A stretch of 64,000 bases of DNA, taken from a bacterium. Lineage in GTDB: Bacteria; Desulfobacterota; DSWW01. Below, piece by piece: positions 12,825-39,769 of the stretch. The stretch lies in NCBI GenBank assembly GCA_028277985.1, contig JANQFG010000265.1, positions 6,832 to 70,831 of the forward strand. The letters are read 5' to 3'. Below the pieces are notes generated by a model. The model ran no database searches. It was not told the DNA's origin and worked only from the letters and a program-made list of their open reading frames with translations. The translations under genes and the position numbers were made by a program. Every line of letters starts with the position of its first letter. The first letter of the stretch is position 1.

Positions 12825-14273
12825 ATGAAGAAAGTCATTGTCATTGGAACCGGCGTCGGCGGAGCCGCGGTCTCCGCGCTTCTTGCTCAGAAGGGTTTCT
12901 CGGTGACTGTCTTCGAAAGGAGCGACTTTGAAGGGGGAAAGGCCGCGAGCTATGAGAGGGACGGGTTCGTCTGCGACATGGGGGTGCACTTCACGGCACG
13001 GGGGTCAAACGGCCCCCTGGGGGAAGTAGCGCGCCTCGTGGATGCGGACCTAAGGTTCTGCGAACCGGACCCGGTCATGCGGATCGTGACGCCGTCCCGG
13101 AGCTACGATTTCTCCCCGCACCTTCTCAGGCCTCTCTCCCTCGTCAAGCAGGCGCTTATTGCGGGTGTGAAGGCGTGGAACCTCCCCGGTGCGCTCCGGT
13201 TGTTCCGGCAGATTGTCAACATCAGCCGGGAACGGGACGCGACTGTCCACGACTCGGTTTCCATGCGGGACTTTCTTCTCCGGTACACGGGCGACGAGGG
13301 TATCCACCGACTCGTGAACATCTTCTCCGGGCTCATGTTCGTCATTCCCCTTGAGGACGCCTCGGCTGGTGAGTACCTCTGGTCCTTTGTGGGTATGGCC
13401 AGAACCGGGTCCCTGGGGTACCCAATCGGCGGCTTCGGCCAGATCGCAAGATCGTACCTGCGGGCCTGCGAACGCAACGGCGGTGAGGTTCATTTGAAGG
13501 AGGGCGCCCGATCGATCCGGGTGGAGAATGGAAAGGTTGTGGGGGTCGAGACCGAGAAGGGGTTCTACGAAGCGGACCTGGTGGTGAGCAACGTTGGGAT
13601 CCGGAAGACGATCGCCATGGCTGGGGAGGATTGTTTTCCCGCGTCCTACACGGCGGACGCAAAGAAACTCAGGGATTCCCTCGGGGCCGTAACCGTCAAG
13701 TATGCACTGGATCGCCGGCCTTTCGATATCCCCATTCTCGTATACATGCCTGAGGACATGGACTGGAGCCGGAACATGGAGATGATGTCAAGGGGCGAGG
13801 CACCGGAGGATATCCCGATCTTCCTTCCTTGCCCTACCAACTGCGACCCTTCACTGGCACCCCCGGGCAAGCACGTTCTTCTGGCCGGTACAGCGGTCCC
13901 GGCAGACCTGTCGGCCTCGGACATGGCCGACACGATCCTGGACCGGATGGAACGGAGAATCCCCAAGCTACTTCCGGGAATCGAGAAACACATCCTCTGG
14001 AAGCACCGCACGAACCTCTCCTACATCGACGGGATGGGAGGCCGCGGAGCGGGTGAGGTGATTGGCCTTGCCCAGTCGTACGACCAGGTGGGGGAGAACA
14101 AGCCGGACCCGCGCACGCCGGTGGAGGGGCTCTACCTGGTAGGCTGCGACGCGGGGGGACGCGGCATCGGCACCGAACAGGCCGCCGACAGCGCACTCAA
14201 GGTAAGAGAGATGATCCTGTCGGAAACGCAGACCCCTGAAATGGTCGTGGCAGAAGCGCAGGTCCCCCGGTAA
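12825..14273 (+). CDS. CrtI/phytoene-desaturase-family NAD(P)/FAD-dependent oxidoreductase
   Basis: Start trimmed to ATG 12825 (SD AGGAGG). Reads MKKVIVIGTGVGGAAVSALLAQKGFSVTVFERSDFEGGKA, with C-terminal LYLVGCDAGGRGIGTEQAADSA. Confidence 0.8.
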   Translation: MKKVIVIGTGVGGAAVSALLAQKGFSVTVFERSDFEGGKAASYERDGFVCDMGVHFTARGSNGPLGEVARLVDADLRFCEPDPVMRIVTPSRSYDFSPHLLRPLSLVKQALIAGVKAWNLPGALRLFRQIVNISRERDATVHDSVSMRDFLLRYTGDEGIHRLVNIFSGLMFVIPLEDASAGEYLWSFVGMARTGSLGYPIGGFGQIARSYLRACERNGGEVHLKEGARSIRVENGKVVGVETEKGFYEADLVVSNVGIRKTIAMAGEDCFPASYTADAKKLRDSLGAVTVKYALDRRPFDIPILVYMPEDMDWSRNMEMMSRGEAPEDIPIFLPCPTNCDPSLAPPGKHVLLAGTAVPADLSASDMADTILDRMERRIPKLLPGIEKHILWKHRTNLSYIDGMGGRGAGEVIGLAQSYDQVGENKPDPRTPVEGLYLVGCDAGGRGIGTEQAADSALKVREMILSETQTPEMVVAEAQVPR

Positions 14274-14348
14274 CAGGGTGCCGAGATCGGCAACAAGCGT
14301 AGTTTCACCTAGCTGTGAGAGTGCGGAATCCTTGGTCCAACACGCGAG

Positions 14349-15554
14349 CTAATCGGCTGCCGGGATCCTGTAGCGGCGAAAGACGAGCCGGTGCAGCATG
14401 TTCTTGAGCACCGTGTCTCCCATGCCCTGGACCTCGAATTCGTTCCGAAGGAAGTCAGCGGTGTCCCGGATGGCCTTTGCCTTGTCGGCGAGGCTCAATC
14501 CATGAAGCATGCCGGGTTGCTTTGCCATGGATGAAGCGCTCGAAGCCTTCATCCGCAGAGGATTGAACTGGTCAAGGGCTGTTACCATTTCCGGTTTGAC
14601 GAGTTGCTTGTAGAGAGTCAGGGCATCGACACCCTTGTGGACAGCCTGGATCACGGCCTCCCCGGCATAGCCGCCGCTTGCGAGCGCACAGGAGATTCCT
14701 TCTCCGCCCTGGTGCATGAGCCCCATGGCATCCCCTACCATCAGCACGTTGCCACGGCCCGGGAAGAAGCGGTTCAGAGGGGTCATCGTGTTGGAGGGGC
14801 AGGCCTCCATGGCCAGTTCGCGTTTGATCTGGAGGCCGAGGTTCTTCTTGAGGAAATCGACAAAGAGCTGGAACCGGCTCTGGAAGTTGTGGCCCTTTAC
14901 CAGGGCCAGGCCGATGATGATCTGGTCGTCCTTCAGGTTCATCCACGGGAAAGGTCCCATGTTCCGGGTGAGGAACCAGTGCAGATAACGGTCGTCGGCG
15001 TCGATCTTCCCCTCGAAGTACTTCTGACATGCGTAGGCCCATGGCAGGCCCTGGTAGACATCTGGGGCAAAGGTGCGGATCACGCGGGAGTTGCCTCCGT
15101 CGGCACCGATGAGGTATCGGGCCCTGACCTTCGTGATCTTTTCGTTCCGTTTGAGATGGGCGACGACTTCCGCGCCGTCGTGTTCCAGGTGTAGAAACCT
15201 CGTACGGTCCCGAAGCACCGCCCCGGATGACTTGGCCAGGAAGTGATCGAACTTGTCTCTCCAGACGTAGAGGTTGTAGCAATCCACGTCCGTGTAGACC
15301 ATACCGACCGTTGGGAAGTAGAAACCCATTCCCCTCGAGATGTTCGGCCTGCTGAAGGCCTTCTCCGGTATGGGTCCGAAGTTCTCGAACACGTAATTCT
15401 GTGAAACGTTCGAGATAATCCCGGAACAGGCTTTTCTCCTGGGCAGTTTGTGCTTGTCGATCAAGAGGGTCTTCAAACCCCCGTCTACGCACTTCCTTGC
15501 TGTGGCCGAACCTCCGGGTCCTGCGCCTACAACGAGAACGTCGAACTTCTGCAT
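14349..15554 (-). CDS. Geranylgeranyl-reductase-family FAD-dependent oxidoreductase
   Basis: Contains MQKFDVLVVGAGPGGSATARKC...LLIDKHKLPRRKACSGIIS and ...VLMVGDAMGLMHQGGEGI. Confidence 0.75.
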   Translation of the reverse strand: MQKFDVLVVGAGPGGSATARKCVDGGLKTLLIDKHKLPRRKACSGIISNVSQNYVFENFGPIPEKAFSRPNISRGMGFYFPTVGMVYTDVDCYNLYVWRDKFDHFLAKSSGAVLRDRTRFLHLEHDGAEVVAHLKRNEKITKVRARYLIGADGGNSRVIRTFAPDVYQGLPWAYACQKYFEGKIDADDRYLHWFLTRNMGPFPWMNLKDDQIIIGLALVKGHNFQSRFQLFVDFLKKNLGLQIKRELAMEACPSNTMTPLNRFFPGRGNVLMVGDAMGLMHQGGEGISCALASGGYAGEAVIQAVHKGVDALTLYKQLVKPEMVTALDQFNPLRMKASSASSMAKQPGMLHGLSLADKAKAIRDTADFLRNEFEVQGMGDTVLKNMLHRLVFRRYRIPAAD

Positions 15555-15621
15555 GCTGCCTCCTTCAAGAGCTGTCGAGCATCGACTGGGTTCACGGAAC
15601 GGCGGAACAAGAAATTACTAT

Positions 15622-15646
15622 AATCGAATAATACATAATTCGAAAT
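15622..15646. promoter_or_regulatory. AT-rich direct repeat TAATCGAAT-N7-TAATTCGAAA (TAWTCGNAA boxes 16 bp apart)
   Basis: Read directly in the divergent intergenic region. Related boxes lie at 56011-56035, 59540-59564 and 1620-1641. Confidence 0.4.
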
Positions 15647-15735
15647 AAAAGATATGGATAGCAATGTCGGCCGCTTATGTCAAGGCATTTGTCGCACAGG
15701 GAGGCCGAAAGGAGGCTCCTGAGGCGCGTGACAAA

Positions 15736-15778
15736 AGGAAATTTCCTGTTGACAATTTTGCTACGAAATTGGTATTTT
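15736..15778 (+). promoter_or_regulatory. Sigma70-like promoter of the CrtI-GltD operon with abutting 12-bp perfect palindrome
   Basis: AGGAAATTTCCT (15736-15747) sits next to TTGACA (15749-15754), followed by a 17/18-nt spacer containing TACGAAATTGG and then TATTTT (15773-15778). An imperfect inverted repeat GATATTAG/CCAATATC lies at 15781-15804. Confidence 0.55.
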
Positions 15779-15844
15779 TTGATATTAGAAATTTTACCAA
15801 TATCGAAAGACAGGCGAGAACGCACCCATGCGGAGAGGGTGAGC

Positions 15845-18745
15845 GTGCGCATTCTGGAAGATGCGACCCTGCGGGATCGCTATCAAGTGGTCGTGGTCGG
15901 TTCGGGCATCGGGGGCCTGACGGCCGGGGCCCTGCTGGCCAAGAGGGGGCTCGAACCGCTCGTGATCGAGCAGCACTATCTGCCGGGTGGTGCCTGCACC
16001 ACCATGCGGCGCAGGGGCATAACCTTCGACGTGGGCGTGGGCATGATGTTCGGTTTCGGGGAAAGAGGGTTCAACCCCCATCGTTTCGTGATGAACGAGA
16101 TCGAGGAAGAAATCGATGTGATCCCCCACGAGTGCCTGTACCAGATGAAGATCATGGGGCGGGACCTCACCTTCTGGCGGGATTTCGAACGGTACTTTTC
16201 GGAGTTGGCGGCCCTGTTCCCCCAACAGGAGAAGGAGTTGCGGGATCTGTACGACTACTTCTACGAGCTGTACGAAGAGATGATCCTCAAGAATGAAGTG
16301 GTCGTGCCCCCAACGGAAATACCGGTGAGGGAGAGCCTCAAGAGCTTCCTGAAGAACCCCCTGGGCATGGTTCGGATCATCCCCCTCATGTTCAAGAACA
16401 CGGAAAGCCTCGTCAAGAGATTCATCACGGATCCGGACGTCATCGCCTTCTTCAACATGCTCACCTGTACCTACTGCTACTGCGACGCCAGAGAGACCCC
16501 GGCGATGCTTTCCGGCGCCCTGTTCTGCGACAACCACGAGGGGGGAGCCTTCTATCCGGCCGGTTCGCCCCAGATGCTCTCGAACAAGCTGGAGAGGGCC
16601 ATTGAGAAGCACGGCGGCCGGGTGCTCTATCGCCGCCTGGTGGATGAGATCCTGATCGAGAGCGGAGAAGCCTACGGGGTGAGGCTCGACGACGGCACCG
16701 AGATCCTGGCCGACCGGGTAGTGGCGAACGCCACGATCTGGAATCTGTACGGAAAACTGGTGAAGCCGCGACACATCGAACCGGAACGAATGGCCTGGGC
16801 TCAGGGCTTCGTACCGACCTTCGGAAGCCTTGTCCTGTATCTGGGAGTGGATGCGGAAGCGGTCCCGGAGGGGACTCCGCCGATCCTGATGTTCGTCGAA
16901 GATATGTACAATATCACGGGGAATGACATTACCGTCTACATATCCTCGGTCGACGATCCAACCTTGTGCGCACCCGGCATGCATTCGATCACCGTTGTCC
17001 AGCCCTCCATGGTCGAATGGCCTCGCCCCTCTGACCCGGAATACGCGTCAGAGAAGTATCAACGCTTGAAACGTGAAGAGGCCGACAAGCTGCTCGATCA
17101 GGTGGAAGAGCATTTTCCGGCTCTACGGAAGCATATCCGGGTCATGGAGGTAGGCACGCCGACCACCATAGAGCGCTTCACCCTCAAGAACTGGGGAGCG
17201 GTCGGTGGGCCGAAGATGATGATGGGGCAGGACATGATGAAACGCCTCCATGCCCGCAGCGACTGGAAGAACCTCTACGTTTGTGGTGATTCCACGGTCA
17301 TGGGCATCGGAATCCCTGCTACGACCGTGTCGGGCGTGGGTGCCGCCAACAGGGTCCTGCGTGACTTGGGGCAAGAGGAATATGCTCCCCGCTCTTTTGT
17401 CCGGGAGTATATCCACTATGTGAAAGGACAACCCTGGACCCCGGCGCCGGACGCCTCGGCACCGATCACAGAGGATTCGGCCGGACGAATTGCCCGGGAA
17501 TGCCAGCATTGCGAAGAGCCTTCCTGCCGGAACGCCTGCCCGGCAGGCATCGAAACGAGCTATTTCGCGCGCCGTGTGGAAGCCGGCAACTTCGAGGGCG
17601 CGGCCCGTGCCCTGAGAGAGGTGAATCCCTTTTCCGAGGTCTGCGGTGTCATCTGTCCGGCCGAACGATTCTGTGAAAAGAGCTGCAGTCGTCTGGATTT
17701 CGATGAGAAGCCGGTAAGGATCAGAGATCTGCACGGCTGGGTCTGCAGTCACGTTTCAAGATCACGCGGATGGGACCGCTGGATTCCGGCACAGAAGAAC
17801 CTCAAGGTGGCGGTCGTCGGTGCCGGTCCCGCCGGCCTCACCTGTGCCCATTATCTGGCCCGGCTCGGCTATCGGGTGGATATGATGGACAAGGCATCGA
17901 AGCCCGGGGGGATGCTGAACCATGCGATCCCCGTCTTCCGACTGGGGGACGACGTCGTGGCGAGGGAAGTCGAGGGATTGACCATTCCCGGAATGAGGTT
18001 TCATGGCGGCAGGGCTCTGGGAGAAGACTTCACCGTTGAAGAACTGGAATCGGACTATCGTGCAGTGTTCCTGGCGCCGGGGTTGTGGTCCGGGCAGCAA
18101 CTGGACATACGGGGTGCAGACAAAGTCAATACGACGGATGCCCTGGATTTTCTGAAGAACTGTCGGACATCCGGAACAACAACGGTCGGGAAGAGGGTGC
18201 TGGTCATCGGGGGAGGCAGTGTGGCATCGGACGCGGCTCTGTCGGCCGGTCGTGTCGGCGCTGCAGAGGTTGCGTTGGTCTGCCTCGAGACCCGGGAAGA
18301 CATGCCCTGTCTCGAGAGTGAAGTGGATGAGATGAACCGCAGGGGAATCCGGATCGAAGACGGATGGGGCCCCCGGGAAATCCTCTCCGGATCGGAGATG
18401 TCCTTTGTCCGTTGCACTTCCGTGTTCGATGATCACGGGGGATTCGATCCCGTGTTCGACGAGTCCGAGGCGATGGAAATGGAATTCGACCAGGTGATTC
18501 TCGCGGTGGGTCAGCGCGTAGAGCCCGGCCTGGCCGGGTACCTGGAAGAGGCCTTTGGCCGGGGCGATCGGCTGGAGGTGGATCGGGAGTCCATGCAGGT
18601 GGTCGGCCGAAGCCGGGTATTTGCCGGTGGAGACATCGTTCGTGGCGCGGGCACCGTGGTGGAGGCGGTGGGGGACGGCAGGCGCGCGGCCATGGGAATT
18701 GACAGGCGGCTGGGCGGTAGCGAGACGCTACAGGTCACGGAGTGA
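15845..18745 (+). CDS. CrtI-like flavoenzyme fused to GltD-like 2x[4Fe-4S]/FAD/NAD(P)H module (paralog 1, 966 aa)
   Basis: GTG start at 15845 aligns exactly with the paralog N-termini (V/M-RILEDATLRDRYQVVVVGSGIGGLTAGALLAKRG), with SD GGAGAGGG upstream. The CrtI part ends at GDSTVMGIGIPATTVSGVGAAN. It is followed by CQHCEEPSCRNACPAG, NPFSEVCGVICPAERFCEKSC, VVGAGPAGLTCAHYL, VIGGGSVASDAA and VFAGGDIVRGAGTVVEAVGDGRRAA. Confidence 0.85.
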   Translation: MRILEDATLRDRYQVVVVGSGIGGLTAGALLAKRGLEPLVIEQHYLPGGACTTMRRRGITFDVGVGMMFGFGERGFNPHRFVMNEIEEEIDVIPHECLYQMKIMGRDLTFWRDFERYFSELAALFPQQEKELRDLYDYFYELYEEMILKNEVVVPPTEIPVRESLKSFLKNPLGMVRIIPLMFKNTESLVKRFITDPDVIAFFNMLTCTYCYCDARETPAMLSGALFCDNHEGGAFYPAGSPQMLSNKLERAIEKHGGRVLYRRLVDEILIESGEAYGVRLDDGTEILADRVVANATIWNLYGKLVKPRHIEPERMAWAQGFVPTFGSLVLYLGVDAEAVPEGTPPILMFVEDMYNITGNDITVYISSVDDPTLCAPGMHSITVVQPSMVEWPRPSDPEYASEKYQRLKREEADKLLDQVEEHFPALRKHIRVMEVGTPTTIERFTLKNWGAVGGPKMMMGQDMMKRLHARSDWKNLYVCGDSTVMGIGIPATTVSGVGAANRVLRDLGQEEYAPRSFVREYIHYVKGQPWTPAPDASAPITEDSAGRIARECQHCEEPSCRNACPAGIETSYFARRVEAGNFEGAARALREVNPFSEVCGVICPAERFCEKSCSRLDFDEKPVRIRDLHGWVCSHVSRSRGWDRWIPAQKNLKVAVVGAGPAGLTCAHYLARLGYRVDMMDKASKPGGMLNHAIPVFRLGDDVVAREVEGLTIPGMRFHGGRALGEDFTVEELESDYRAVFLAPGLWSGQQLDIRGADKVNTTDALDFLKNCRTSGTTTVGKRVLVIGGGSVASDAALSAGRVGAAEVALVCLETREDMPCLESEVDEMNRRGIRIEDGWGPREILSGSEMSFVRCTSVFDDHGGFDPVFDESEAMEMEFDQVILAVGQRVEPGLAGYLEEAFGRGDRLEVDRESMQVVGRSRVFAGGDIVRGAGTVVEAVGDGRRAAMGIDRRLGGSETLQVTE

Positions 18746-18806
18746 GGGGAGGGATGAGGGGGCAGGCCCTGGTACGCCATCTCCCATTGTCCTCGTCCCC
18801 GATTTC

Positions 18807-18826
18807 GGGCACAGGCACGGGCACGG
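18807..18826. repeat. Hexamer micro-repeat (GGCACR)3
   Basis: GGGCACAGGCACGGGCACGG lies 23 nt upstream of start 18849. The same family occurs at 37831, 38736 and, inverted, at 46676. Confidence 0.6.
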
Positions 18827-18848
18827 ACAAAAGAGAAAAGAGGAGCCC

Positions 18849-21737
18849 ATGAAACTACTGAATGATGCAGTGATCAGGGATCGATATGACGTTGTGGTCG
18901 TGGGAGCCGGGATTGGCGGGCTGACCGCTGCCGCTCTGCTGGCGAAGAGGGGACAGAGGGTTCTCGTTCTCGAGCAACACTATATCCCCGGGGGGTGCTG
19001 CACGGCGATCCGGCGCAACGATGTGGCCATCGACGTGGGTGCGGCCCTGCTGTTCGGATGGAACGACGAGACGAGCGCGCACCCCTTCGTGATGAACGAG
19101 CTCGAAGAAGAAATCGACCTGATTCCACACGATTCGACATACCGCATTCACCTCGGGAAGAAGACGGTCACGTTCTGGCGGGACCTGGACCGGTATCTCG
19201 ACGAATTGACGGCGGTGTTTCCGAACCAGGACAGGGAGATTCGTGCCCTCTACCGGGAGTGCAGCGAGTTGTACGAGATCATGATGGGAATGGCCAAGTT
19301 CCCCGTGCCCCCCACGGAGATACCCCCCCTGGACGGGCTCAAGATGGCGCTCAAGGATCCCATCGGGATGATGAAGATGCAGAAGCTCATGTCCATGTCC
19401 GGTGAGGATCTGCTCAAGAAGCACATCACCGATCCGAAAACGACCGATTTCTTCGACTTTCTCGTTGCCTCGTGCACGACCTGTACCGTCAAGGAGAGCC
19501 CTGCGAGCATGGTGGTCGGTATCTTCATGAACATCCATCTCGGTGGGACCTGCTACCCTTCGGGTTCCCCCCAGATGTTTCCGAACAAGCTCGAAAGGGC
19601 CCTGGAGAGATTCGGCGGCCAGATCGTTTACCGGAAGATGGTGGACGAGATCCTGATCTGGCAGGGGAAGGCCTACGGGGTTCGCTTGTCCGACGGAACC
19701 GAGATCCTGGCGGACACCGTGGTTTCCAATGCGGACGTCTGGACCCTCTACGGCACGTTGGTCAACCCGAAGCACATCAAGCCCGACCGGATGGAGTGGG
19801 CGCAGGGGTTCGATCCGACCCCGGCCATCCTGGTGCTCTATATAAGTGTGAAGGAGGAAGCCATTCCGGGAGGAACGCATCCGATCGAATTCTATGTACG
19901 AAGTCTCCACGATGTGCAGGGGGATAACTTCATGGTCTATATCCCCTCCCTCGAAGACCCGACCATTGCTCCGACGGGTACCCATTCCATCACGATCATG
20001 GGATCGAGCAAGATCGATTGGCCCCGTCCTCAGGATCGGTCCTATCGGTCGGACGAGTACAACCGGATGAAAGAAGAGGAGGCGGAGAGGGTCCTTGATC
20101 TGCTCCAGGCGAACTATCTGCCGAACCTGAAGGAAAACATCATCAGCATGGACGTCGGAACCGCATCGACCATCGAACGGTACACACGGAAGTACAAGGG
20201 GAACATCGGTGGGCCGAAAGTCACGACGGAACAGTTCTTCTTCAACCGGCTGAAGGCCCGCAGCGAATGGAAGAATCTCTACTGTGTGGGCGACTCGACC
20301 GCCATGGGCGAAGGGGTTGTTTCCGTGACCATGTCGGGTGTGGGGGCGGCCAACCAGATCTTGAAGGACAAGGGGCTCTTGCCGTACCGGCCTCGTGCGT
20401 TCTCCAAGCATTTCGTCAACATGATCGAGGGCAAGCCCTGGGTCGCGAGCCCGGATCCGGCAGATCCGATTACCGAAGAGGCGGCCATAAGAATCGGCAG
20501 GGACTGCCAGCACTGCGAAGATCCTGAATGTCAGAATGCGTGTCCGGCAGACATCGAGACGAGCCTTTTCGCCCGGCGCATAGAATCCGGGAATTTCGTG
20601 GGTGCCGCGAGGGTGTTGCGGGAGGTGAACCCCCTTTCGGAAGTCTGTGGATACATCTGTCCGGCAGAGCAATTCTGCGAAAAGAAATGCAGCCGGCTGG
20701 ACTTCGACGACCGACCCGTGCGAATCCGCGAGCTCCATGGGTGGGTCTGCGGTCACGCGTCCCGATTCGAGGGGTGGGATCGCTCCGTTCCAGGCCTTAA
20801 CGGCCATAAGGTGGCCGTTGTGGGCGCCGGACCGGCAGGCCTCACCTGTGCCCATTATCTGGCACGACTTGGTTACCGGGTGGACATCATGGAGAAAGCG
20901 AAGGCGTCCGGAGGGATGCTGACACATGCGGTTCCGGCCTTCCGTCTGCCGGACGAGGTCGTGGAGCGCGAGATAGAGGGTTTGAGCCTTCCGGGGATGG
21001 CATTCCAGTACGCAAAGGCCCTTGGCAAGGACTTCAGGATTGCGGAACTGGAGGCGGATTATGATGCCGTCTTCCTGGCACCCGGGTTGTGGTCGGGCCG
21101 AACGCTCGACATCCCCGGCCTGGAGAAGGCGAAGATGACGGACGGGCTGAGGTTCCTCCAATCCTGCCGGGGAAAGAAGAAGGGGAAAGTCGGAAAGAAT
21201 GTGGTGGTTGTAGGAGGGGGGAGCGTGGCGTCGGATGCAGCTGTTTCCGCCGTTGAATGCGGAGCAGAGAAGGTGACACTGGTGTGCCTCGAAGGTCCGG
21301 AGGAGATGCCGTGCCTCAAGAGTGAAATCGTTGAAATGAAGAATCACGGGATCGAGGTGCAGAACGGGTGGGGCCCGAAAGAAGTCACATCCGAATCGAA
21401 GATTTCCTTTGTATGCTGTACCTCGGTGTTCGATGAGACCGGAGCCTTTCGCCCTGTTTTCGATGAATCGAAAACCATGGAGTTGGATTTCGATCAGCTG
21501 ATTCTGGCCGTGGGGCAGCGAACGGAACCGGCTCTTGCCAAATACTTGAAGAAGGAATTCGGGCGGGATGACGGGCTGGATGTGGATCCGCAGACCATGG
21601 AGGTGATCGGCCGAAGCGGGGTATTTGCCGGCGGAGACATCGTGCGTGGAGCCGGAACCGTCGTGGAGGCAGTAGGGGACGGACGTCGTGCCGCCATGGC
21701 CATCGACGAGCAGGTGAGGGATGACCCGGGGTTCTGA
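18849..21737 (+). CDS. CrtI-like::GltD-like fusion flavoprotein (paralog 2, 962 aa)
   Basis: ATG 18849 (SD AAGAGGAG). Reads MKLLNDAVIRDRYDVVVVGAGIGGLTAAALLAKRG and has the same motif series as paralog 1, including CQHCEDPECQNACPAD and NPLSEVCGYICPAEQFCEKKC. The listed ORF start 18555 is an upstream open-frame extension. Confidence 0.85.
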   Translation: MKLLNDAVIRDRYDVVVVGAGIGGLTAAALLAKRGQRVLVLEQHYIPGGCCTAIRRNDVAIDVGAALLFGWNDETSAHPFVMNELEEEIDLIPHDSTYRIHLGKKTVTFWRDLDRYLDELTAVFPNQDREIRALYRECSELYEIMMGMAKFPVPPTEIPPLDGLKMALKDPIGMMKMQKLMSMSGEDLLKKHITDPKTTDFFDFLVASCTTCTVKESPASMVVGIFMNIHLGGTCYPSGSPQMFPNKLERALERFGGQIVYRKMVDEILIWQGKAYGVRLSDGTEILADTVVSNADVWTLYGTLVNPKHIKPDRMEWAQGFDPTPAILVLYISVKEEAIPGGTHPIEFYVRSLHDVQGDNFMVYIPSLEDPTIAPTGTHSITIMGSSKIDWPRPQDRSYRSDEYNRMKEEEAERVLDLLQANYLPNLKENIISMDVGTASTIERYTRKYKGNIGGPKVTTEQFFFNRLKARSEWKNLYCVGDSTAMGEGVVSVTMSGVGAANQILKDKGLLPYRPRAFSKHFVNMIEGKPWVASPDPADPITEEAAIRIGRDCQHCEDPECQNACPADIETSLFARRIESGNFVGAARVLREVNPLSEVCGYICPAEQFCEKKCSRLDFDDRPVRIRELHGWVCGHASRFEGWDRSVPGLNGHKVAVVGAGPAGLTCAHYLARLGYRVDIMEKAKASGGMLTHAVPAFRLPDEVVEREIEGLSLPGMAFQYAKALGKDFRIAELEADYDAVFLAPGLWSGRTLDIPGLEKAKMTDGLRFLQSCRGKKKGKVGKNVVVVGGGSVASDAAVSAVECGAEKVTLVCLEGPEEMPCLKSEIVEMKNHGIEVQNGWGPKEVTSESKISFVCCTSVFDETGAFRPVFDESKTMELDFDQLILAVGQRTEPALAKYLKKEFGRDDGLDVDPQTMEVIGRSGVFAGGDIVRGAGTVVEAVGDGRRAAMAIDEQVRDDPGF

Positions 21738-21773: not shown

Positions 21774-21796
21774 AGCTTGGGAAAGGAAAGCAACAA

Positions 21797-27935: not shown

Positions 27936-27984
27936 TGAAGCGTGAGGAACCGAAAGCCGACGGAGGCCGGAAGAGGAGAGTGAC

Positions 27985-28146
27985 ATGGGTTTCATTCTAG
28001 CCGTGTTCAAGTGGGTGGTTCTCATTGCGGTGGCTTACTACACCTTCAAGATCGTTCGAGCGTTGATCCGGGAACCGAATCTGCGGCTCTATCTGGTGAA
28101 GACGGCGAAGGAGGCGAAGAACATGTACTATCGATATCATGTATGA
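27985..28146 (+). CDS. Small (53 aa) single-TM protein, hypothetical
   Basis: Below the ORF-track cutoff. ATG 27985 lies 4 nt after SD AAGAGGAGAG. Reads MGFILAVFKWVVLIAVAYYTFKIVRALIREPNLRLYLVKTAKEAKNMYYRYHV, a hydrophobic helix followed by a basic tail. It closes the CrtI operon. Confidence 0.45.
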   Translation: MGFILAVFKWVVLIAVAYYTFKIVRALIREPNLRLYLVKTAKEAKNMYYRYHV

Positions 28147-28164
28147 GGCGGGGCGAATCACTGG

Positions 28165-28193
28165 TTGACAATATATTACGAAAATGGTAGTTT
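28165..28193 (+). promoter_or_regulatory. Sigma70-like promoter upstream of marR-family gene
   Basis: TTGACA, then the 17-nt spacer ATATATTACGAAAATGG, then TAGTTT. It is nearly superimposable on the 15749-15778 promoter (TTGACAAT...TACGAAAWTGGTA.TTTT). Confidence 0.55.
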
Positions 28194-28286
28194 TGGAAAA
28201 CGGTAGTAACAAGCGTATGCCTGGAGGGCTTGCTGGGTTTGTTTTATTATTAAATAGTTACAGACTAAATGTAAGGAGTAGCTTGA

Positions 28287-28802
28287 ATGAAAGGAAGCGA
28301 TCGAGTGAAGGTGATTCAAGACTATTTCAACCTGATGGGAAAGACCTACATCATCCTCCTGAGCAGCCTCGATGAATTCCTCGGGTCTCCTCTCTCCACG
28401 AACGAGAAGGTGGTCCTGCAGATCCTTGATGAGGAACCGATCTCGATCAAGGAGGTCTCTCTCAGGACTGGGCTGGCCTTGTCCACCCTCACGAATGTCT
28501 TCGACAAGATGGAGGACAAGCGTCTGGTGAAGAGGCGGCACTCTCGCACGGATCGCCGCATGGTGAAGATCGAGCTGGACGTGGCCGGCCGTCGCCTTCA
28601 GTCCAGGTTCAACGATCTGATCAAGCAGATCTCTTCCACCTGGCTGGAAAGAGTTCCGGAGGAAGATGGCCGGAATTTCACTTCCGCCCTGGAGAAGACG
28701 GGGTTCTTCCTCTCTGTGGACAGTGAAGATTTTCAGGATGGATTGAGCTCTCTGATCGAGCCCCTGCAGATCACGCTGGCAAAGCAGTTCAAGAAAAGGT
28801 GA
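28287..28802 (+). CDS. MarR-family transcriptional regulator
   Basis: Winged-helix region: TNEKVVLQILDEEPISIKEVSLRTGLALSTLTNVFDKMEDKRLVKRRHSRTDRRMVKIELD. Confidence 0.85.
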   Translation: MKGSDRVKVIQDYFNLMGKTYIILLSSLDEFLGSPLSTNEKVVLQILDEEPISIKEVSLRTGLALSTLTNVFDKMEDKRLVKRRHSRTDRRMVKIELDVAGRRLQSRFNDLIKQISSTWLERVPEEDGRNFTSALEKTGFFLSVDSEDFQDGLSSLIEPLQITLAKQFKKR

Positions 28803-28856
28803 TGAAGGTTCTCTTAGTGAGAAGAAGTCTATTGTGAACAGCACCTTTGGAGAGAA

Positions 28857-30917
28857 ATGACGATGCAGAAGAAACCAACGAAGCTGTTTGAACCGATCAT
28901 GGTCGGGAACATGCAACTGAGGAACCGGATCAAGATGCCTGCCATGGCCATCGCCATGGGAGAGGACGGAGGCATGTCCGAGGCGGCCAAGGCCTTCTAC
29001 GTCGAGCGGGCCAAGGGTGGCGTTTCGCTGATGGGTGTGAGTTGTACGGCGACCCCGTTGATCGAAGACCCGATGCTGGGTTTGTACGACGACCGGTTCC
29101 TTCCCGGCTTGAAGGACCTGGTGGATTCGGTTCGCCCTTACGGGGCGAGACTCTACACCCAGATGGGTGTGGGTTACAGCTGGGCCTTTGGGGACGGGCC
29201 GGTCGAACTGGTGAGCCCTTCGGGCCTGACCTGCTGGGGACGCCCCGGGACCCCTTTCCGCATGGGAGGGCCTTTCGAACCGACCATGCCGAAAGAACTC
29301 ACCGTGGAGGAGATTCAGCAGATCGTGGAGGCTTACGGTGACGGGGCCCGTCGAACCCAGGAGGCGGGCTTCGATGCGGTGGAGGTCATCGCTTCCGTGG
29401 GATACGTGACTGCCCAGTTCATCTCGCCCAAAACGAACAAACGCCAGGACCAGTACGGTGGTAGCCTGGAGAACCGGATGCGTCTCTTCCTCGAGATCAT
29501 CGAGAACATCAAGAAGAAGACGGGCGGCGATTTCCCGATCCTGGTGCGCATCAGCGGGGCCGATCTGCTGAACGATGGGGGATATGACCTGGAAGACACC
29601 AAGAAGATGGCGCCCATGCTGGAAAAGGCAGGGGTGAATCAGATCGATGTGATGGCGGGTTGGCACAATGCGCCCGTTGCCATGATCCAGACGCAAGTGG
29701 CCCAGGGGTCCTGGGTACACCTGGCGGAAGGGGTGAAGAGCGTCGTGAACATCCCCGTTGCCGCAGGGACACAGATCCAGGACATCGACGTGGCGGAACG
29801 GGTGGTGGCGGAGGGGCGCGTGGACATGGTCTACATGGCACGCGGCCTGGTGGCGGATCCTGAACTGCCTCGCAAGGCCCAGCAAGGCCGGCTCAAGGAC
29901 ATCCGACCCTGCATGAACTGCTGCCGTTGCATGTCCGCGTCCGACAATCCGCCGGTCCACTGCACGGTGAACGGACGCATGGGCAGGGAGTGGAAGTACC
30001 CGGAGGAACGGCCCGCCAAAGAGAACAAACGAGTGCTGGTTGTCGGGGGCGGTCCGGGCGGCATGGAGGCTGCCCGCGTTGCGACGCTGAGGGGCCATCG
30101 TGTGACCCTTTGCGAGAAGAATCCGAAATTGGGCGGAGCCATGCTCCTGAGCTCGATCACCAACCCACGGATCGGGCCTGTACTGAAGTACATGACGAGA
30201 CAGATCAAGGAGCTTTCCATCGATGTCAGGTTGAATACCGAAGTGACTCCGGCAGTCGTGAGGGAGGTAAACCCGGACGTGCTCGTGGTGGCACAAGGGG
30301 GCAAGGCTGCGCCGATGAACGTACCCGGTATCGATAAGGACATCGTGTTGAGTCGCAGCGACGCAGAGTCGATCCTTGGGGGAGGCCTGCCGCAGAAGGG
30401 AGGGCTGGTCCGCAGACTGCTTTCCCTGGGCGCTGCCCTGTTCGTCCGGCTCTTCTACAATCCGAAGGTGTTGCGGAAGCTCCTTCGGTTCCCCTTCCCC
30501 TTCAAGAAGCGGGTGGCCATCCTGGGAGGCGGGTTTGCGGGTGTGGAACTGGGAGAAACCCTGGTGGAGAATGGAAAGAAGGTTGCCATCGTTGAACCCT
30601 CCAAACGGATGGGCAGCGACATCGAGATCATCCACCGATGGGTCTTTCTGAAGCACTTGAGGGACGCGGGCGCGAATCTTCTCACCGAAGCGGAAGTCGT
30701 GGAGATTACAGACCAAGGGGTGAAGATCACGCAGGAAGGTTCACCTCAATTCATCGAGGCGGATACCGTGGTGCCGATCAACATCACCGCCAACAAGGAG
30801 CTGGCCGACACCTTCGAAGGCAGGGGGCCGCAGGTATTCGTCGTTGGGGATTGTGCGGAACCTGCGAAGCTCCAGGAGGCGATTACCGCGGGCTTTGTGG
30901 CGGGGCATGAGATGTAA
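28857..30917 (+). CDS. OYE-like FMN / [4Fe-4S] / FAD-NAD(P) oxidoreductase (2,4-dienoyl-CoA reductase FadH family)
   Basis: N-terminus LFEPIMVGNMQLRNRIKMPAM. Cys cluster PCMNCCRCM...VHC. Then VLVVGGGPGGMEAA and VAILGGGFAGVELG. ATG 28863 is the likelier start given the SD spacing. Confidence 0.85.
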   Translation: MTMQKKPTKLFEPIMVGNMQLRNRIKMPAMAIAMGEDGGMSEAAKAFYVERAKGGVSLMGVSCTATPLIEDPMLGLYDDRFLPGLKDLVDSVRPYGARLYTQMGVGYSWAFGDGPVELVSPSGLTCWGRPGTPFRMGGPFEPTMPKELTVEEIQQIVEAYGDGARRTQEAGFDAVEVIASVGYVTAQFISPKTNKRQDQYGGSLENRMRLFLEIIENIKKKTGGDFPILVRISGADLLNDGGYDLEDTKKMAPMLEKAGVNQIDVMAGWHNAPVAMIQTQVAQGSWVHLAEGVKSVVNIPVAAGTQIQDIDVAERVVAEGRVDMVYMARGLVADPELPRKAQQGRLKDIRPCMNCCRCMSASDNPPVHCTVNGRMGREWKYPEERPAKENKRVLVVGGGPGGMEAARVATLRGHRVTLCEKNPKLGGAMLLSSITNPRIGPVLKYMTRQIKELSIDVRLNTEVTPAVVREVNPDVLVVAQGGKAAPMNVPGIDKDIVLSRSDAESILGGGLPQKGGLVRRLLSLGAALFVRLFYNPKVLRKLLRFPFPFKKRVAILGGGFAGVELGETLVENGKKVAIVEPSKRMGSDIEIIHRWVFLKHLRDAGANLLTEAEVVEITDQGVKITQEGSPQFIEADTVVPINITANKELADTFEGRGPQVFVVGDCAEPAKLQEAITAGFVAGHEM

Positions 30918-31006
30918 GCCCAAGGGATTGCTGCGAGGCTTTTCCCCGGAGTACATATCCTTGCTTCTCGGTATCAATCGCTTCTACGCACACGGGAGGC
31001 TACGGC

Positions 31007-32083
31007 ATGTCCAGAGTGATCGTGAGGAATTCGGACTTCGAGAGCCTGCGGGGAGCGATCGATCGTATCTTTCAAGACCTGGAGGTGGATCTGAAGGGAA
31101 AGAGCGTCCTGATCAAGCCGAATTTCGGCGCGGCCGTTGGGCCGGAGAAATCGGCGCTGACAGACGCTAGGGTGGTCAAGGCGGTGCTGGACGCCTGCCT
31201 CGAGCAGACCGGTGAGGTCATCATCGGGGACAACCCGGGAAATCTTGACACCAGAGCCATGCACACGATCGGGATGTCCGGGATTCTGGAACTGGCGAGC
31301 GACTTCTATTGCAACATCAGCCAGGGGGGGCAGTTTGTCGACATCGGCTCCGAGATCATCCCCAGGGTCTTCCTGTCCAGTCAGGTCACGGATGTGGACT
31401 ATGTGATCAACGTGCCGAAGATGAAGACCCACGTGCTCTGCGGACTATCCTGTTGTATCAAGAACCTCTACGGGTACGTGGTAGGCGCGCAGAAGGCGAG
31501 ATACCACCTGGAGTCGGGGAGCCTGAAGCGTCTCACCCAGTTGTGGCTCGACCTCTACAAATACCGAGCACCGAACCTGAACATCGTGGATGCGATCGTG
31601 GCCATGGAGGGTGGCGGCCCCACACACGGCAAACCGAGGCCCGTCGGAAAGATCGTGGCCGGAACGAACGGGTTTGAAGTGGATGTGGTGCTCACGACCA
31701 TGATGGGGTGGGACCCGAGGACGATGAAGATGCTGGAAATGGCCTGCGAACAGGGGTTGGGTGAGATCGATGTGGAGAGAATCGAGGTAGAGGGTGACTT
31801 CGAGATCCTCCCCGAGTTCGAGAAACCGCCTACCTTTGCAGCCATCGATCCGAAGTTCAACCCATACGAGGAAATCGTTCGTATTCGACCGAGCCTGGAC
31901 GAAGAGAAATGCGTCCTCTGCAGGCTCTGCGGGGACGAATCCTGTCCCGCAGAGGCGATATCCTTTGAAGAGTATCCAATCATCGATCCGGAGAAATGCA
32001 TCTCCTGCTACTGTTGTGTCGAATTCTGTCCCGAGGGGGCCCTGTTCGTCGAGTATGACAAGGAAATATTCGAGATTGCATAG
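31007..32083 (+). CDS. DUF362 domain protein with C-terminal 2x[4Fe-4S] ferredoxin domain
   Basis: Contains VLIKPNFG...PKMKTHVLCGLSCCIKNLYG...IVDAIVAMEGGGP, then CVLCRLCGDESCP and CISCYCCVEFCP. Confidence 0.7.
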   Translation: MSRVIVRNSDFESLRGAIDRIFQDLEVDLKGKSVLIKPNFGAAVGPEKSALTDARVVKAVLDACLEQTGEVIIGDNPGNLDTRAMHTIGMSGILELASDFYCNISQGGQFVDIGSEIIPRVFLSSQVTDVDYVINVPKMKTHVLCGLSCCIKNLYGYVVGAQKARYHLESGSLKRLTQLWLDLYKYRAPNLNIVDAIVAMEGGGPTHGKPRPVGKIVAGTNGFEVDVVLTTMMGWDPRTMKMLEMACEQGLGEIDVERIEVEGDFEILPEFEKPPTFAAIDPKFNPYEEIVRIRPSLDEEKCVLCRLCGDESCPAEAISFEEYPIIDPEKCISCYCCVEFCPEGALFVEYDKEIFEIA

Positions 32084-32100
32084 TGTGAGGGATGTTCGTC

Positions 32101-33417: not shown

Positions 33418-33458
33418 TCCGTTGGAACGAGGTTTCGAGAAAGAGAGAGGGGAGCGAG

Positions 33459-34808
33459 ATGGGTAACTGGGATGTTGTGATTGTTGGAGCGGGATTCGGA
33501 GGGCTTTGTTCTGGGGCGCTGCTGGCCCATGCGGGAAAGAAGGTCCTGGTGCTGGAGAAGGACAGCGCCATCGGAGGGCGCGCCAAGAGCATCCTGTATT
33601 CGGGCCAGGTCCTCGATGACGGCGCCCACATCCCCTCGAGGGCAGGGCACCTTGAATCGATCTTTGAAGACCTGGGAATTCCCTATCCGGAATTGGCGCA
33701 CATGGGCAAGAGCGAAATCTACCACGATGGGAAGTGGTGGGGGCCGAAAGAGCTCTTCACCAAAGACATGTACAAGAAGGTCTTCGGTGAGATGCTGCGC
33801 CTGTCCAAGGAGGAGATCGTCCAACTCGACGATCTGCCGTTGAGTGAATGGGTCAAGAGCGTGTCCGACGACCCGGGCATCCAGAAGCTGTTCTTCTATC
33901 TGGCCTGCTCGACGAGTGTGGGAAATCGTTTCGAGACCTACTCTGCCGGAGAGATGATCTACATCCTTCGGGAGTTCATTGACGGCGGTCGCAGCCTCAC
34001 GGAAATCGGGGGCGTGATCAAAGGCGGGATGAACAACATCCTGCAGCCCCTCACCGACTACATCAACGCCCACGGGGGCGAAGTGAGGCTGAATACACGG
34101 GTGGACAGTGTAGAGACCCGGGACGGAGAAGCTGTAGGGGTGAATCTGGAAGTGGGGGAACGTCTCTTCCACAGCCAGGTCCTGGACGTTGAGACGGAGA
34201 AGGCTGATTTTGTTATCGTCACGCTTCCGCTCAATGATCTATTCACCGTAATGGACGAGGACGCCTTTCCTAACTGGTGGGTGGACTGGGTGAACTACAT
34301 CGGCACCAAGGTCAGCCACGCCTGGAGCATCATCTACGGCCTGGACGAACCTCTGTTCGACACACAGACCTTCCGGTGGGCTCCGAACCTTCCTGAATCC
34401 GGATTCTCCGGGATCTTCTATCCCATGCCCTCGTATGGAGACGACGTGAACCAGTACCAGTTCCACGTCTCCTACCAGGGGCACTACGACGAAATGCCGG
34501 ATCTGCTCAAGGGGAGCCGGGCGCGGGTCAGACGACAGATTCGAGATACGATTGCCATGCTGGAGCGGGAGTCGATTGCATTCTTCCCACAGTTGAAGGA
34601 CAAATACCGCTGGCGAGTTGCCCATGCGGGGGTCTACGGGATTGCACAGTCGCCCGGATTCGTGGGCACCAAACGGCCGTCCATGAAGGTGCCGGGATAC
34701 AGCAATCTCTACGTGGTGTCGAACACCGTGCAGGAAGCGAGAGGCATCAGCATGTCTGCCATTGGACGATGTGCGCGGATGGCAAGTGAGGCCATTGTAA
34801 ATACATAG
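33459..34808 (+). CDS. CrtI-family FAD-dependent oxidoreductase
   Basis: Reads MGNWDVVIVGAGFGGLCSGALLAHAGKKVLVLEKDSAIGGRA. The listed ORF 32772.. is an upstream open-frame extension that overlaps the previous gene. Confidence 0.75.
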   Translation: MGNWDVVIVGAGFGGLCSGALLAHAGKKVLVLEKDSAIGGRAKSILYSGQVLDDGAHIPSRAGHLESIFEDLGIPYPELAHMGKSEIYHDGKWWGPKELFTKDMYKKVFGEMLRLSKEEIVQLDDLPLSEWVKSVSDDPGIQKLFFYLACSTSVGNRFETYSAGEMIYILREFIDGGRSLTEIGGVIKGGMNNILQPLTDYINAHGGEVRLNTRVDSVETRDGEAVGVNLEVGERLFHSQVLDVETEKADFVIVTLPLNDLFTVMDEDAFPNWWVDWVNYIGTKVSHAWSIIYGLDEPLFDTQTFRWAPNLPESGFSGIFYPMPSYGDDVNQYQFHVSYQGHYDEMPDLLKGSRARVRRQIRDTIAMLERESIAFFPQLKDKYRWRVAHAGVYGIAQSPGFVGTKRPSMKVPGYSNLYVVSNTVQEARGISMSAIGRCARMASEAIVNT

Positions 34809-39752: not shown

Positions 39753-39769
39753 CAAAGGATCGTCACGCA

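Follow-up and report, generated by a model that had tools for sequence, protein, structure and literature searches.

A conserved island of CrtI-superfamily flavoprotein genes, three of them fused to an NfnB/GltD-type reductase module, in an uncultured Desulfobacterota bacterium

Eight CrtI-like genes, three of them fusions

The window analysed here is a 64 kb stretch of DNA (GC ~58%) from an uncultured Thermodesulfobacteriota (Desulfobacterota) bacterium, in which eight genes for CrtI-like flavoproteins lie within 22 kb (12825–34808). Open reading frames (ORFs) were called, and 39 candidate ORFs were scanned against Pfam. The original prediction had counted eight CrtI-like genes in this span, three of them fused to further domains, and the count holds. 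PF01593 (Amino_oxidase, the fold family that includes CrtI) is matched essentially end to end by all eight products, with E values of 1.7e-15 to 5.2e-25 and scores of 57.7–89.1 bits against a gathering cut-off of 19.8, covering profile positions ~1–443; NAD_binding_8 is also matched by all of them. The N-terminal GxGxxG...E...GG motif is present in each copy, beginning at residue 8–19 (residue 75 in the long ORF of fusion A). The prediction had leaned on most copies keeping their FAD-binding residues, and the C-terminal 'LYxxG(D)' FAD motif is likewise found in eight of eight.

Five of the genes stand alone. C6 (26424..27935, +; 503 residues) is a bona fide member of the phytoene-desaturase family: it aligns with Pantoea CrtI (4dgk) over its full length (E = 4e-64, 30% identity), carries the THPGGG motif and has orthologs of 92–93% identity. 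Its neighbour C5 (24777..26333, +; 518 residues) is a distant CrtI-family protein with a full-length PF01593 match and 25% identity to C6 over 529 residues; among solved structures it matches CrtI and the CrtD-like 4rep, both only at ~1e-7. C7 (32092..33417, +) has the PF01593 fold and is of archaeal type, matching the uncharacterised Methanosarcina mazei protein 3ka7 over its full length (E = 6e-40) and Pyrococcus PF1083 (3nrn, E = 1e-18). The adjacent C8 (33459..34808, +) is a CrtI-superfamily protein (PF01593, E = 1e-23; 3nrn, E = 1e-11) sharing ~22% identity with C7 over 283 residues. Finally, C1 (12825..14273, +) falls into the archaeal, 3ka7-like clade (PF01593, E = 5e-25; 3ka7, E = 5e-22) and is 27% identical to C7; no ortholog of C1 was seen in the syntenic loci described below.

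We compared scores on NCBIfam profiles with their curated cut-offs (TIGR02734, 238.1 bits; TIGR02730, 586.9 bits; TIGR02032, 158.8 bits). The cut-off of the crtI_fam profile TIGR02734 is passed by C6 only (338.6 bits), and lower scores are obtained for the fusions (160–169 bits), C1 (108.6), C5 (102), C7 (65.7) and C8 (60.5). By profile score, then, seven of the eight copies are members of the superfamily and C6 alone belongs to the CrtI family proper, so that the label 'CrtI-family' in the original prediction is right for the fold of all eight but too specific for seven. The His motif of covalent FMN attachment, G-F-[LR]-x-[NS]-[TL]-H-A near the N terminus (PMC11061730), occurs in none of the eight copies, which carry a GFxFDxG type instead.

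All-against-all BLASTP of the CrtI-like copies and a neighbour-joining tree, both proposed with the original prediction, were used to judge their age. The stand-alone copies share pairwise identities of 20–27%; the three fusions are 51–60% identical in the CrtI-like half and 58–68% in the reductase half. With PDB relatives and CrtH-like genes from Chlorobi and cyanobacterial genomes as references, the tree has three deep clades. The N-terminal domains of the fusions (from the window, Microthrixaceae and Prochlorococcus) form the first, sister to CrtH/CrtISO-like proteins; C6 groups with CrtI and 4rep in the second, with C5 and a 544-residue relative nearby; and C7, C1 and C8 join archaeal proteins of the 3ka7 and PF1083 type in the third. 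Because the pairwise identities are this low, the copies have orthologs of their own at 77–93% identity in the same order elsewhere, and the clades are deep, sequence comparison identifies the copies as ancient, differentiated paralogs, as had been claimed for the stand-alone genes.

The three fusion genes, A (15677..18745, +), B (18849..21737, +) and C (21797..24691, +), share one architecture, in which a CrtISO/CrtD-like FAD domain (PF01593) is followed by Fer4_20 (PF14691) with two [4Fe-4S] clusters and by the FAD/NAD(P)H domain Pyr_redox_2 (PF07992). Fusion A has an 84% ortholog in locus L093 and fusion B has 82% orthologs in L002 and L005 (L numbers label the loci fetched for comparison; L002 is an ENA contig and L005 a locus from a Thermodesulfobacteriota metagenome-assembled genome, MAG). 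The start of fusion B is most likely at 18849 (MKLLNDAVIRDRYD, as in homologs), the ORF start at 18555 being less likely. In fusion A, conservation begins near 15839, and the database protein P0031 (1022 residues) starts at 15677. The best sigma-70-like site of the region (15749–15778, +; TTGACA-18-TATTTT with TG) lies inside this long ORF and upstream of the conserved part, which suggests that the annotated start of the 1022-residue protein is too far upstream.

Sequence searches align the C-terminal ~420 residues of the fusions with NfnB/NfnI-L, with GltD and with the N-terminal region of dihydropyrimidine dehydrogenase (DPD), at E values of 8e-38 to 6e-61. In an alignment of 24 full-length homologs (50–80% identity), eight Cys residues in two CxxCxxxxCxxxC(P)-like groups are invariant, as are the nucleotide-binding glycines of both Rossmann domains, including the GGG motif. 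An AlphaFold2 model of fusion C calculated from this alignment is single and compact (pLDDT 87, pTM 0.87). Foldseek comparison of its C-terminal half with the PDB gave NfnI-L (5jca_L, E = 9e-37, TMt 0.79), Thermotoga maritima NfnB (4ylf_B, TMt 0.82) and GltD (6s6s_E, TMt 0.82), as well as DPD; no solved chain in the PDB spans more than ~41% of the fusion C model. Sequence and model thus both predict the layout of an NfnB/GltD/DPD-type module, with two four-Cys clusters ahead of the Rossmann domains for FAD and NAD(P)H. The alignment also shows a GxGxxAxxxA fingerprint and, after the second Rossmann strand, an invariant C-L-E; judged by GltD and NfnB motifs, these two features would point opposite ways on NADH versus NADPH. 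The Pfam scan of the window ORFs gave no NfnA or GltB partner subunit, the partner being the fused CrtISO-like domain, and we therefore rejected a classical Nfn transhydrogenase or glutamate synthase.

The N-terminal halves raise the question of whether the fusions reduce their substrate at all. Their best model is the carotenoid isomerase profile TIGR02730 (285.8–303.9 bits, with CrtD models next), and their identity to the CrtH-like proteins from Chlorobi and cyanobacterial genomes is 27–33%. Reduced FAD is a requirement of CrtISO, whose relative in animals, retinol saturase (RetSat), saturates a C=C bond. The fusions could accordingly be non-redox, FADred-dependent isomerases (cis–trans or positional) in which the NfnB/GltD-like module just keeps the flavin reduced, and both the CrtH-like nearest clade and the occurrence of fusions in Prochlorococcus and aerobic Actinomycetota, where a polyene isomerase is plausible, are in line with this. 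However, none of the fusions reaches the CrtISO equivalog cut-off, their scores being about half of it, and true reductases such as DPD and GltD are built with just such a stoichiometric NAD(P)H module of two clusters and two flavins. Three tandem paralogs placed beside C=C reductases of the geranylgeranyl-reductase (GGR) and OYE types also suggest net reduction, and we regard isomerisation as unlikely.

At least 831 relatives of the fusion were found; of the best 120, nearly all are full length (~950–1000 residues) with at least 50% identity. Their source labels are only 'FAD-dependent oxidoreductase', 'carotene isomerase', 'phytoene dehydrogenase-like' and 'glutamate synthase beta-subunit-like', so the architecture is common yet unnamed. 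Full-length fusions occur in GTDB genomes of Thermodesulfobacteriota, a Deltaproteobacteria MAG, Microthrixaceae and other Actinomycetota, Chloroflexota/Anaerolineales and Prochlorococcus sp. MIT0707. The copy in the last, an oxygenic phototroph (NZ_CP138938.1; L011, 9983–12817), is a complete CrtISO-like::Fer4_20::Pyr_redox_2 protein that is 37–41% identical to the window proteins, and its neighbourhood is island-like and uninformative. The other solitary contexts, in Deltaproteobacteria bin23 (housekeeping neighbours), Microthrixaceae and Actinomycetota, are uninformative as well.

Conserved gene order and neighbouring genes

To compare gene neighbourhoods, as the original prediction had also proposed, all window proteins were searched by tblastn against the fetched loci. 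One order is kept at 77–93% identity in both L005 and L002: the minus-strand genes for the polyferredoxin-like protein FeS406 and the GGR-like protein, two fusions, C5, C6, a 53-residue peptide, MarR, OYE, DUF362, C7 and C8. The nearest genome is the uncultured Thermodesulfobacteriota MAG, with fusion C at 78% and 12 syntenic genes at 77–93%. In the more distant L003 (57–82% identity) three fusions, C5, C6 and the 53-residue peptide remain in order, and in more divergent contigs (49–62% identity) the fusion stands beside varying subsets of the same gene set. Locus L085, for example, encodes TetR, DUF35, thiolase, SCP2, two Toluene_X/FadL-type outer-membrane channels, GGR (−) and a fusion, followed by MarR, two SDRs, an Fe/S protein, a C8-like protein, Fer4_11, an aldehyde:ferredoxin oxidoreductase (AOR), SnoaL and an R355-like flavoprotein. 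L086 has DUF1329, DUF1302, an acyl-CoA dehydrogenase (ACAD), an Fe/S protein, the 544-residue CrtI-like protein, FeS, GGR (−), a fusion, C5, MarR, Fer4_11, AOR, SnoaL_4 and SCP2, and L087 has FeS, SnoaL_4, a Mo-oxidoreductase (−), a fusion, DUF1329, DUF1302 and ACAD.

We then counted co-occurrence in 24 non-redundant loci of at least 9 kb, each with a full-length fusion of at least 45% identity. At least one further homolog of the window set lies beside the fusion in 18 loci, and the fusion is alone in six. FeS406-like genes were the most frequent (10 loci), followed by MarR and SDR (8 each), GGR and C6-like (7 each), C5, R355 and SnoaL (6 each), C8 (5), and AOR with Fer4_11 and ACAD (4 each). 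Eight PF01593 genes within 22 kb, in an order kept in other contigs, are far beyond chance. Since gene order and subsets recur across loci, the swarm is part of a modular, co-inherited set and not an accident of one genome, while the fusion gene can also stand alone. The 22 kb span is the core of a conserved island of at least 45 kb.

Among the CrtI-type genes, C5 is the commonest partner of the fusions (orthologs of 88–90% in L002/L005 and 81–85% in L086/L108/L110). C8 in related loci always precedes Fer4_11–AOR, as C8–Fer4_11–AOR–SnoaL in L085/L097 and as C8–AOR in L008. The 401-residue GGR-superfamily flavoprotein (14349..15554, −) is divergent from the fusions in orientation, and its ortholog lies directly upstream of a fusion in L002, L005, L085, L086, L093, L108, L119 and L144. 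It matches TIGR02032 with E = 4.6e-37 and 128.3 bits, below the 158.8-bit cut-off; its best solved relative is the Thermoplasma DGGGPL reductase 3oz2 (E = 9e-15, residues 1–308), and, read by eye, KACSG and LMVGD are present and a clear PxxYxWxFP is not recognisable. The original prediction spoke of GGR-like reductases in the plural, which says too much: the other flavoprotein, R355 (355 residues; 46740..47807, −), matches GGR and CrtI models just over a Rossmann start of ~35 residues and lies outside the 22 kb.

Four more genes lie between C6 and C7, the first two of which had been overlooked in the original prediction. The 53-residue single-helix membrane peptide (27985..28146, +) has 77–79% identical ORFs in the same place in L002, L005 and L089, follows C6 in L003 too, and could be a membrane anchor or small subunit. 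The MarR-family regulator (28287..28802, +) is 90–92% identical to an L002 gene annotated PF12802/PF01047, and a MarR gene follows a fusion or C5 in eight of the 24 loci. OYE1 (28857..30917, +; PF00724 and PF07992) is of the FMN, Fe/S and FAD/NAD(P)H enoate-reductase type (FadH/BaiCD/BilR-long-like), is syntenic at 87–89%, and scores 364–404 bits on the BaiCD, mycofactocin-OYE and BilR-long models, all below cut-off. The DUF362 protein with two [4Fe-4S] clusters (31007..32083, +; PF04015, E = 9e-46, and Fer4; syntenic at 84–87%) is a possible electron partner of C7 and C8.

Downstream of C8, still on the plus strand, follow a Fer4_11 polyferredoxin (34809–35285; PF13247), a tungsten-type AOR (35304–37211; AFOR_N, E = 4e-82; AFOR_C, E = 2e-103), a SnoaL-like protein (37238–37627), two SDRs (37872–38729 and 38802–39752), an RND efflux pair with HlyD-type adaptor and AcrB-type pump (39734..44158; PF16576; PF00873, E = 8e-194), a SnoaL_4 protein (44175–44600) and a long ACAD (44715–46559). 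The SnoaL, SDR and ACAD assignments are from Pfam; SnoaL and SDR families also occur in L085, L086, L108, L110 and L119, and an ACAD of 604–624 residues adjoins fusions in L086, L087 and L101. R355 is paired with the first gene of a minus-strand block (47846..55892), and this pairing recurs in L002 and L093. The block comprises a double VAO/PCMH flavoprotein (47846–50809), a cytoplasmic molybdopterin oxidoreductase (50888–53137), OYE2 (53070–55028; FadH/BaiCD-like) and a third SDR (55071–55892), the first and last assigned by Pfam. The molybdopterin oxidoreductase has a 66% ortholog that adjoins the fusion together with a SnoaL_4 gene in L006/L087. It is a single-subunit molybdopterin/tungstopterin enzyme with an N-terminal 4Fe-4S motif, closest among solved structures to thiosulfate/polysulfide reductase, formate dehydrogenases and acetylene hydratase, and it might be a water-dependent hydroxylase or hydratase.

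The upstream part of the window encodes a double VAO flavoprotein (1972–4917, +), a DUF35/ChsH2-like protein (4920–5411, +), an SCPx-type thiolase (5451–6638, +) and SCP2 (6663–7088, +), all assigned by Pfam, and FeS406 (406 residues; 7104–8324, −). DUF35, thiolase and SCP2 lie upstream of GGR and the fusion in L085/L119 (69–84% identity), and the FeS406 ortholog adjoins GGR in L002, L005, L086, L093, L108 and L144. In L002/L005 the two genes abut directly, and in the window they are ~6 kb apart; a TrkA-type K+ channel, a CBS protein, a lactate permease (LctP) and C1 (8602–14273) appear as an insertion between them relative to these loci. At the far end, all on the plus strand, are a third double VAO flavoprotein (56325–59339) and a TetR gene (59676–60335), both from Pfam, then a nitroreductase with two N-terminal [4Fe-4S] clusters (Fer4; 60369–61283; homologs adjoin fusions in L008 and L098) and a LuxE/PaaK-like acyl-adenylate ligase (61318–62655). 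The three VAO proteins are paralogs of ~1000 residues, each with two tandem VAO/PCMH FAD_binding_4 domains, and score far below cut-off on curated models. Rfam and tRNA scans of the window gave no matches.

Two observations concern the covalent-FMN His motif. In R355, 'AYHPSLHATP', ~25 residues past GxGxxG...E...GG, contains the core of the CtmAB/Delta24-SD motif, so that R355 may, from its sequence, be a small covalently flavinylated protein; homologs have FHPSVHATP in L085/L097 and lack the motif in L002/L005/L006/L093. The core S-L-H-A is otherwise restricted to the 544-residue CrtI-like protein of L005, L086 (5361–6995, −), L108 and L144, which has a lipoprotein signal (LPSC) and a CtmAB-like 'YRFEVSLHA'. 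Its gene, placed between SDR3/double-VAO and FeS406–GGR in these sister loci, is missing from the window.

By family, the partner genes are those of catabolism or transport of hydrophobic compounds, including the FadL/TodX channels in sister loci. No gene-level match to PF00348, PF00494 or PF05834 (prenyl synthase, phytoene/squalene synthase and lycopene cyclase) was found among the 39 window ORFs, in agreement with the original prediction, and the annotated loci L002, L085, L086 and L087 contain no carotenoid or isoprenoid synthase or cyclase gene either. Ordinary carotenoid biosynthesis, already doubted in that prediction, is therefore unlikely, given also the catabolic neighbours (thiolase, ACAD, AOR, SDRs, RND, MarR/TetR), and we rejected a carotenoid cluster since neither crtE/crtB/hpnCD nor a cyclase is linked in the window or annotated syntenic loci. 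The genes could still serve the cell's own lipids or pigments and not catabolism, for instance by making or modifying an unusual carotenoid, the side chain of a quinone or an isoprenoid that is fully or partly saturated. Biosynthesis is the classical role of the CrtI and GGR families, lipid synthesis is where Has and archaeal GGRs act, and one MAG has the fusion in a housekeeping context. However, neither the 64 kb nor the annotated syntenic loci contain a cyclase, prenyltransferase or radical-SAM gene or a prenyl, phytoene or squalene synthase, and thiolase, ACAD, AOR, the RND pump, MarR/TetR and, in homologous loci, FadL-type channels are the neighbours found, which makes this distinctly unlikely.

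We also considered a natural-product cluster whose tandem CrtI homologs would cyclise or reduce a polyene, as PhyDH/OX do in polycyclic tetramate macrolactam (PTM) biosynthesis. PTM clusters hold one to three adjacent CrtI homologs and an alcohol dehydrogenase; however, no polyketide synthase (PKS) or non-ribosomal peptide synthetase (NRPS) family was found among the 39 window ORFs or in the annotated syntenic loci, and no other scaffold-forming gene is present in the window or several independent syntenic loci. The PTM-type cluster was rejected on the missing adjacent hybrid PKS/NRPS and is extremely improbable.

The substrate could also be a steroid, a bile-acid-like compound or another polycyclic triterpenoid, with ring and side-chain double bonds, in place of an acyclic isoprenoid or carotenoid. 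OYE2 scores 546 bits on the BaiCD model; metabolism of steroid side chains and rings typically involves SnoaL/NTF2 proteins, SDRs, a DUF35/ChsH2-like protein with thiolase and SCP2, a Mo enzyme and a long ACAD; and an exported protein resembling CtmAB/Delta24-SD is encoded in syntenic loci, Delta24-SD acting on stigmasterol. No KstD-type (full-length PF00890), AtcABC-type or S25DH-type enzyme is found in the window, however, all steroid-related models score far below cut-off, and C6 is a genuine CrtI relative with 30% identity to Pantoea CrtI. A steroid-type substrate is thus rather unlikely in our view.

Proposed function of the island

Our preferred reading, held with middling confidence, is that the island serves the uptake and the oxygen-independent transformation or degradation of a compound that is hydrophobic, polyunsaturated and probably isoprenoid. 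Families found here with members that act on isoprenoid double bonds are CrtI/CrtISO/RetSat and GGR, and DHCR24 of the VAO family acts on isoprenoid-type double bonds. The double bonds of the substrate would be saturated, hydrated or desaturated by enzymes of the island, none of them using O2. Substrate and direction of reaction are inferred from gene composition, cofactor motifs and linkage.

The fusions would be self-sufficient, NAD(P)H-driven saturases of non-activated or conjugated C=C bonds, each paralog handling a different double-bond position or intermediate. By analogy with DPD, electrons would pass from NAD(P)H through FAD and the two [4Fe-4S] clusters to the catalytic FAD and the C=C bond of the substrate. 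Reduction with NAD(P)H is thermodynamically sensible, and desaturation of an alkyl chain onto NAD(P)+ is strongly uphill. The co-location of GGR-like and OYE-type C=C reductases with the three fusions is in line with saturation: the GGR-like enzyme and a polyferredoxin-like partner may reduce further isoprenoid double bonds, and the two FadH/BaiCD-like OYE enzymes enoyl or dienoyl double bonds. C6 with C5, and C7/C8 with the DUF362 Fe/S protein, may form two subunit pairs arranged like CtmAB, and both would desaturate, hydrate or hydroxylate positions beside double bonds with water or an Fe/S acceptor in place of O2. SDRs and the tungsten-type AOR could then convert alcohol to aldehyde and acid, the LuxE/PaaK-like ligase could activate the acid, and ACAD with the SCPx-type thiolase, SCP2 and DUF35 could shorten the branched chain. 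MarR and TetR would sense the compound, and the RND pump would handle it.

The original prediction favoured stepwise hydrogenation or dehydrogenation of a polyunsaturated lipophilic skeleton. This fits the data because three copies are fused to an NfnB/GltD/DPD-type NAD(P)H–Fe/S–FAD module with GGR and OYE alongside, but it is probably too narrow, since CrtI-family enzymes of anaerobes also hydrate (Has) and hydroxylate (CtmAB).

Several points weigh against anaerobic transformation of an isoprenoid as the task of the island. No gene reaches a curated equivalog threshold, C6 alone passing a cut-off and that at subfamily level. Since CrtISO itself catalyses a non-redox isomerisation, the fused reductase may do no more than activate the flavin. 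The fusion is in some cases solitary, in non-catabolic contexts and in aerobes or phototrophs (bin23, Microthrixaceae, Prochlorococcus MIT0707), which means that its basic activity is not tied to the island or to anaerobic catabolism. No Atu/Liu-type carboxylase or lyase for 3-methyl-branched chains is present in the window. Finally, operon structure is suggested by short co-directional gaps alone: promoter and terminator scans were at chance level, with two suggestive sites, the one at 15749–15778 described above and a hairpin (28219–28238) after the 53-residue peptide gene.

The many independent types of C=C reductase (three fusions, GGR and two OYE enzymes) would also suit a cell that uses the C=C bonds of polyunsaturated lipids as an electron sink or respiratory acceptor and does not assimilate the carbon, as proposed for isoprene reduction in acetogens. 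The NfnB-like module is of a kind used in electron bifurcation, and IsrA provides a precedent. However, these loci also conserve AOR and genes of beta-oxidation type (thiolase, ACAD and ligase), no membrane-bound energy-conserving module is linked, and we give this only a slim chance.

A bolder proposal, which is possible but which we advance tentatively and with more doubt than belief, is that the fusions are a new class of self-sufficient, possibly electron-bifurcating polyene/isoprenoid saturases, and that the island would then encode the first O2-independent route by which bacteria of the sulfate-reducer type hydrogenate and degrade polyenes of the carotenoid, squalene or polyprenyl type. 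No description of a CrtISO-like::NfnB-like fusion or of the island was found in the literature searched, most subscription journals lying outside its reach. Anoxic sediments contain squalene, carotenoids, phytol-derived alkenes, polyprenols and sterols among their major buried lipids. To our knowledge, anaerobic attack on non-activated isoprenoid C=C bonds is established in few cases, namely CtmAB (limonene), Delta24-SD with Mo hydroxylases (sterol side chains) and a putative isoprene reductase, and we know of no environmental enzymes identified for sterol or isoprenoid hydrogenation. Rapid sterol hydrogenation in contemporary lake sediment is the subject of a 1975 paper by Gaskell & Eglinton, as indicated by its reference entry in PMC12179283. 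The island offers two sets of conserved candidates: the fused NAD(P)H–Fe/S–FAD 'polyene saturase' architecture, with hundreds of uncharacterised relatives in Desulfobacterota, Actinomycetota, Chloroflexota and Prochlorococcus, and the co-inherited flavoenzymes of CrtI, GGR, OYE and VAO type. If true, the proposal would establish a new class of C=C-reducing enzymes, with possible biocatalysts for selective polyene hydrogenation, and a new pathway in anaerobic lipid turnover; isoprenoid lipids in anoxic sediments would have a biological route to early hydrogenation and removal, which would bear on the interpretation of lipid biomarkers.

Comparison with known systems

Likeness to CtmA/B, Has, RetSat, CrtN and HpnE was judged by profile scores, the published motif and PDB relatives. 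In the monoterpene island of Castellaniella defragrans, the genes for the limonene dehydrogenase CtmAB are accompanied by those for a ferredoxin, a ferredoxin reductase, MarR, ACAD and 2,4-dienoyl-CoA reductase (PMC4109377); CtmAB hydroxylates an allylic methyl group with water (PMC4109377, PMC11061730). Its relative Delta24-SD desaturates the sterol side chain in anaerobic sterol degradation (PMC11061730). The window shares with the ctm/mrc island adjacent pairs of COG1233/CrtI-family genes ~25–27% identical, a dedicated electron chain of Fe/S and NAD(P)H-flavoprotein type, alcohol and aldehyde oxidation, ACAD, dienoyl-CoA reductase, MarR and, as we infer for the window, attack on an isoprenoid alkene without oxygen. 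At gene level, C5/C6 and C7/C8 show the CtmAB-type arrangement of two adjacent genes, for which subunits of ~26–27% identity are typical. However, the window has eight copies in three clades, all without the covalent-FMN His motif; its redox partner is fused and of NfnB/GltD type, whereas ctm has a 2Fe-2S ferredoxin and reductase; its host is of a strict-anaerobe lineage; and AOR takes the place of an NAD-dependent aldehyde dehydrogenase. Because the His motif is absent, membership of the stand-alone pairs in the CtmAB/Delta24-SD family was rejected, and an architectural analogy is kept.

Other systems match single parts of the island. The GGR of Methanosarcina acetivorans depends on a ferredoxin encoded alongside, and the GGR-superfamily gene similarly adjoins the polyferredoxin-like Fe/S gene in syntenic loci; the window gene differs in scoring below the TIGR02032 cut-off, in its bacterial, catabolic context and in the ~6 kb that separate it from the Fe/S gene. 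Has, the CrtI-family hydroxyarchaeol synthase of Methanosarcina, adds water to an isoprenoid C=C bond without O2. C7, C1 and C8 group with the archaeal 3ka7 and PF1083, at an identity of only 24–29%; any kinship with Has would be by way of the similarity of C7 and C1 to 3ka7. IsrA of Acetobacterium wieringae, a candidate isoprene reductase (PMC10134865), resembles the fusions in being an NfnB/GltD-like Fe/S flavoprotein of an anaerobe implicated in the reduction of an isoprenoid C=C bond, but it has extra Fe/S clusters and Ni-insertion partners and lacks a CrtI-like domain. CrtISO/CrtH/RetSat, whose chemistry works on the double bonds of polyenes by means of reduced FAD, is the best-scoring family and nearest clade for the N-terminal halves of the fusions, which are set apart by scores of half the cut-off, 27–33% identity, the fused reductase and a window that has no carotenoid pathway.

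The C-terminal ~420 residues of the fusions have the two four-Cys clusters of Fer4_20 and the FAD/NAD(P)H Rossmann domains of DPD, GltD and NfnB, a module that in DPD feeds reduction of a C=C bond; in the fusions, however, the catalytic partner is a CrtISO-like FAD domain, N-terminal in the same chain. In summary, of the known systems the ctm monoterpene island comes closest in its logic, and DPD, GltD and NfnB come closest in electron-transfer design.

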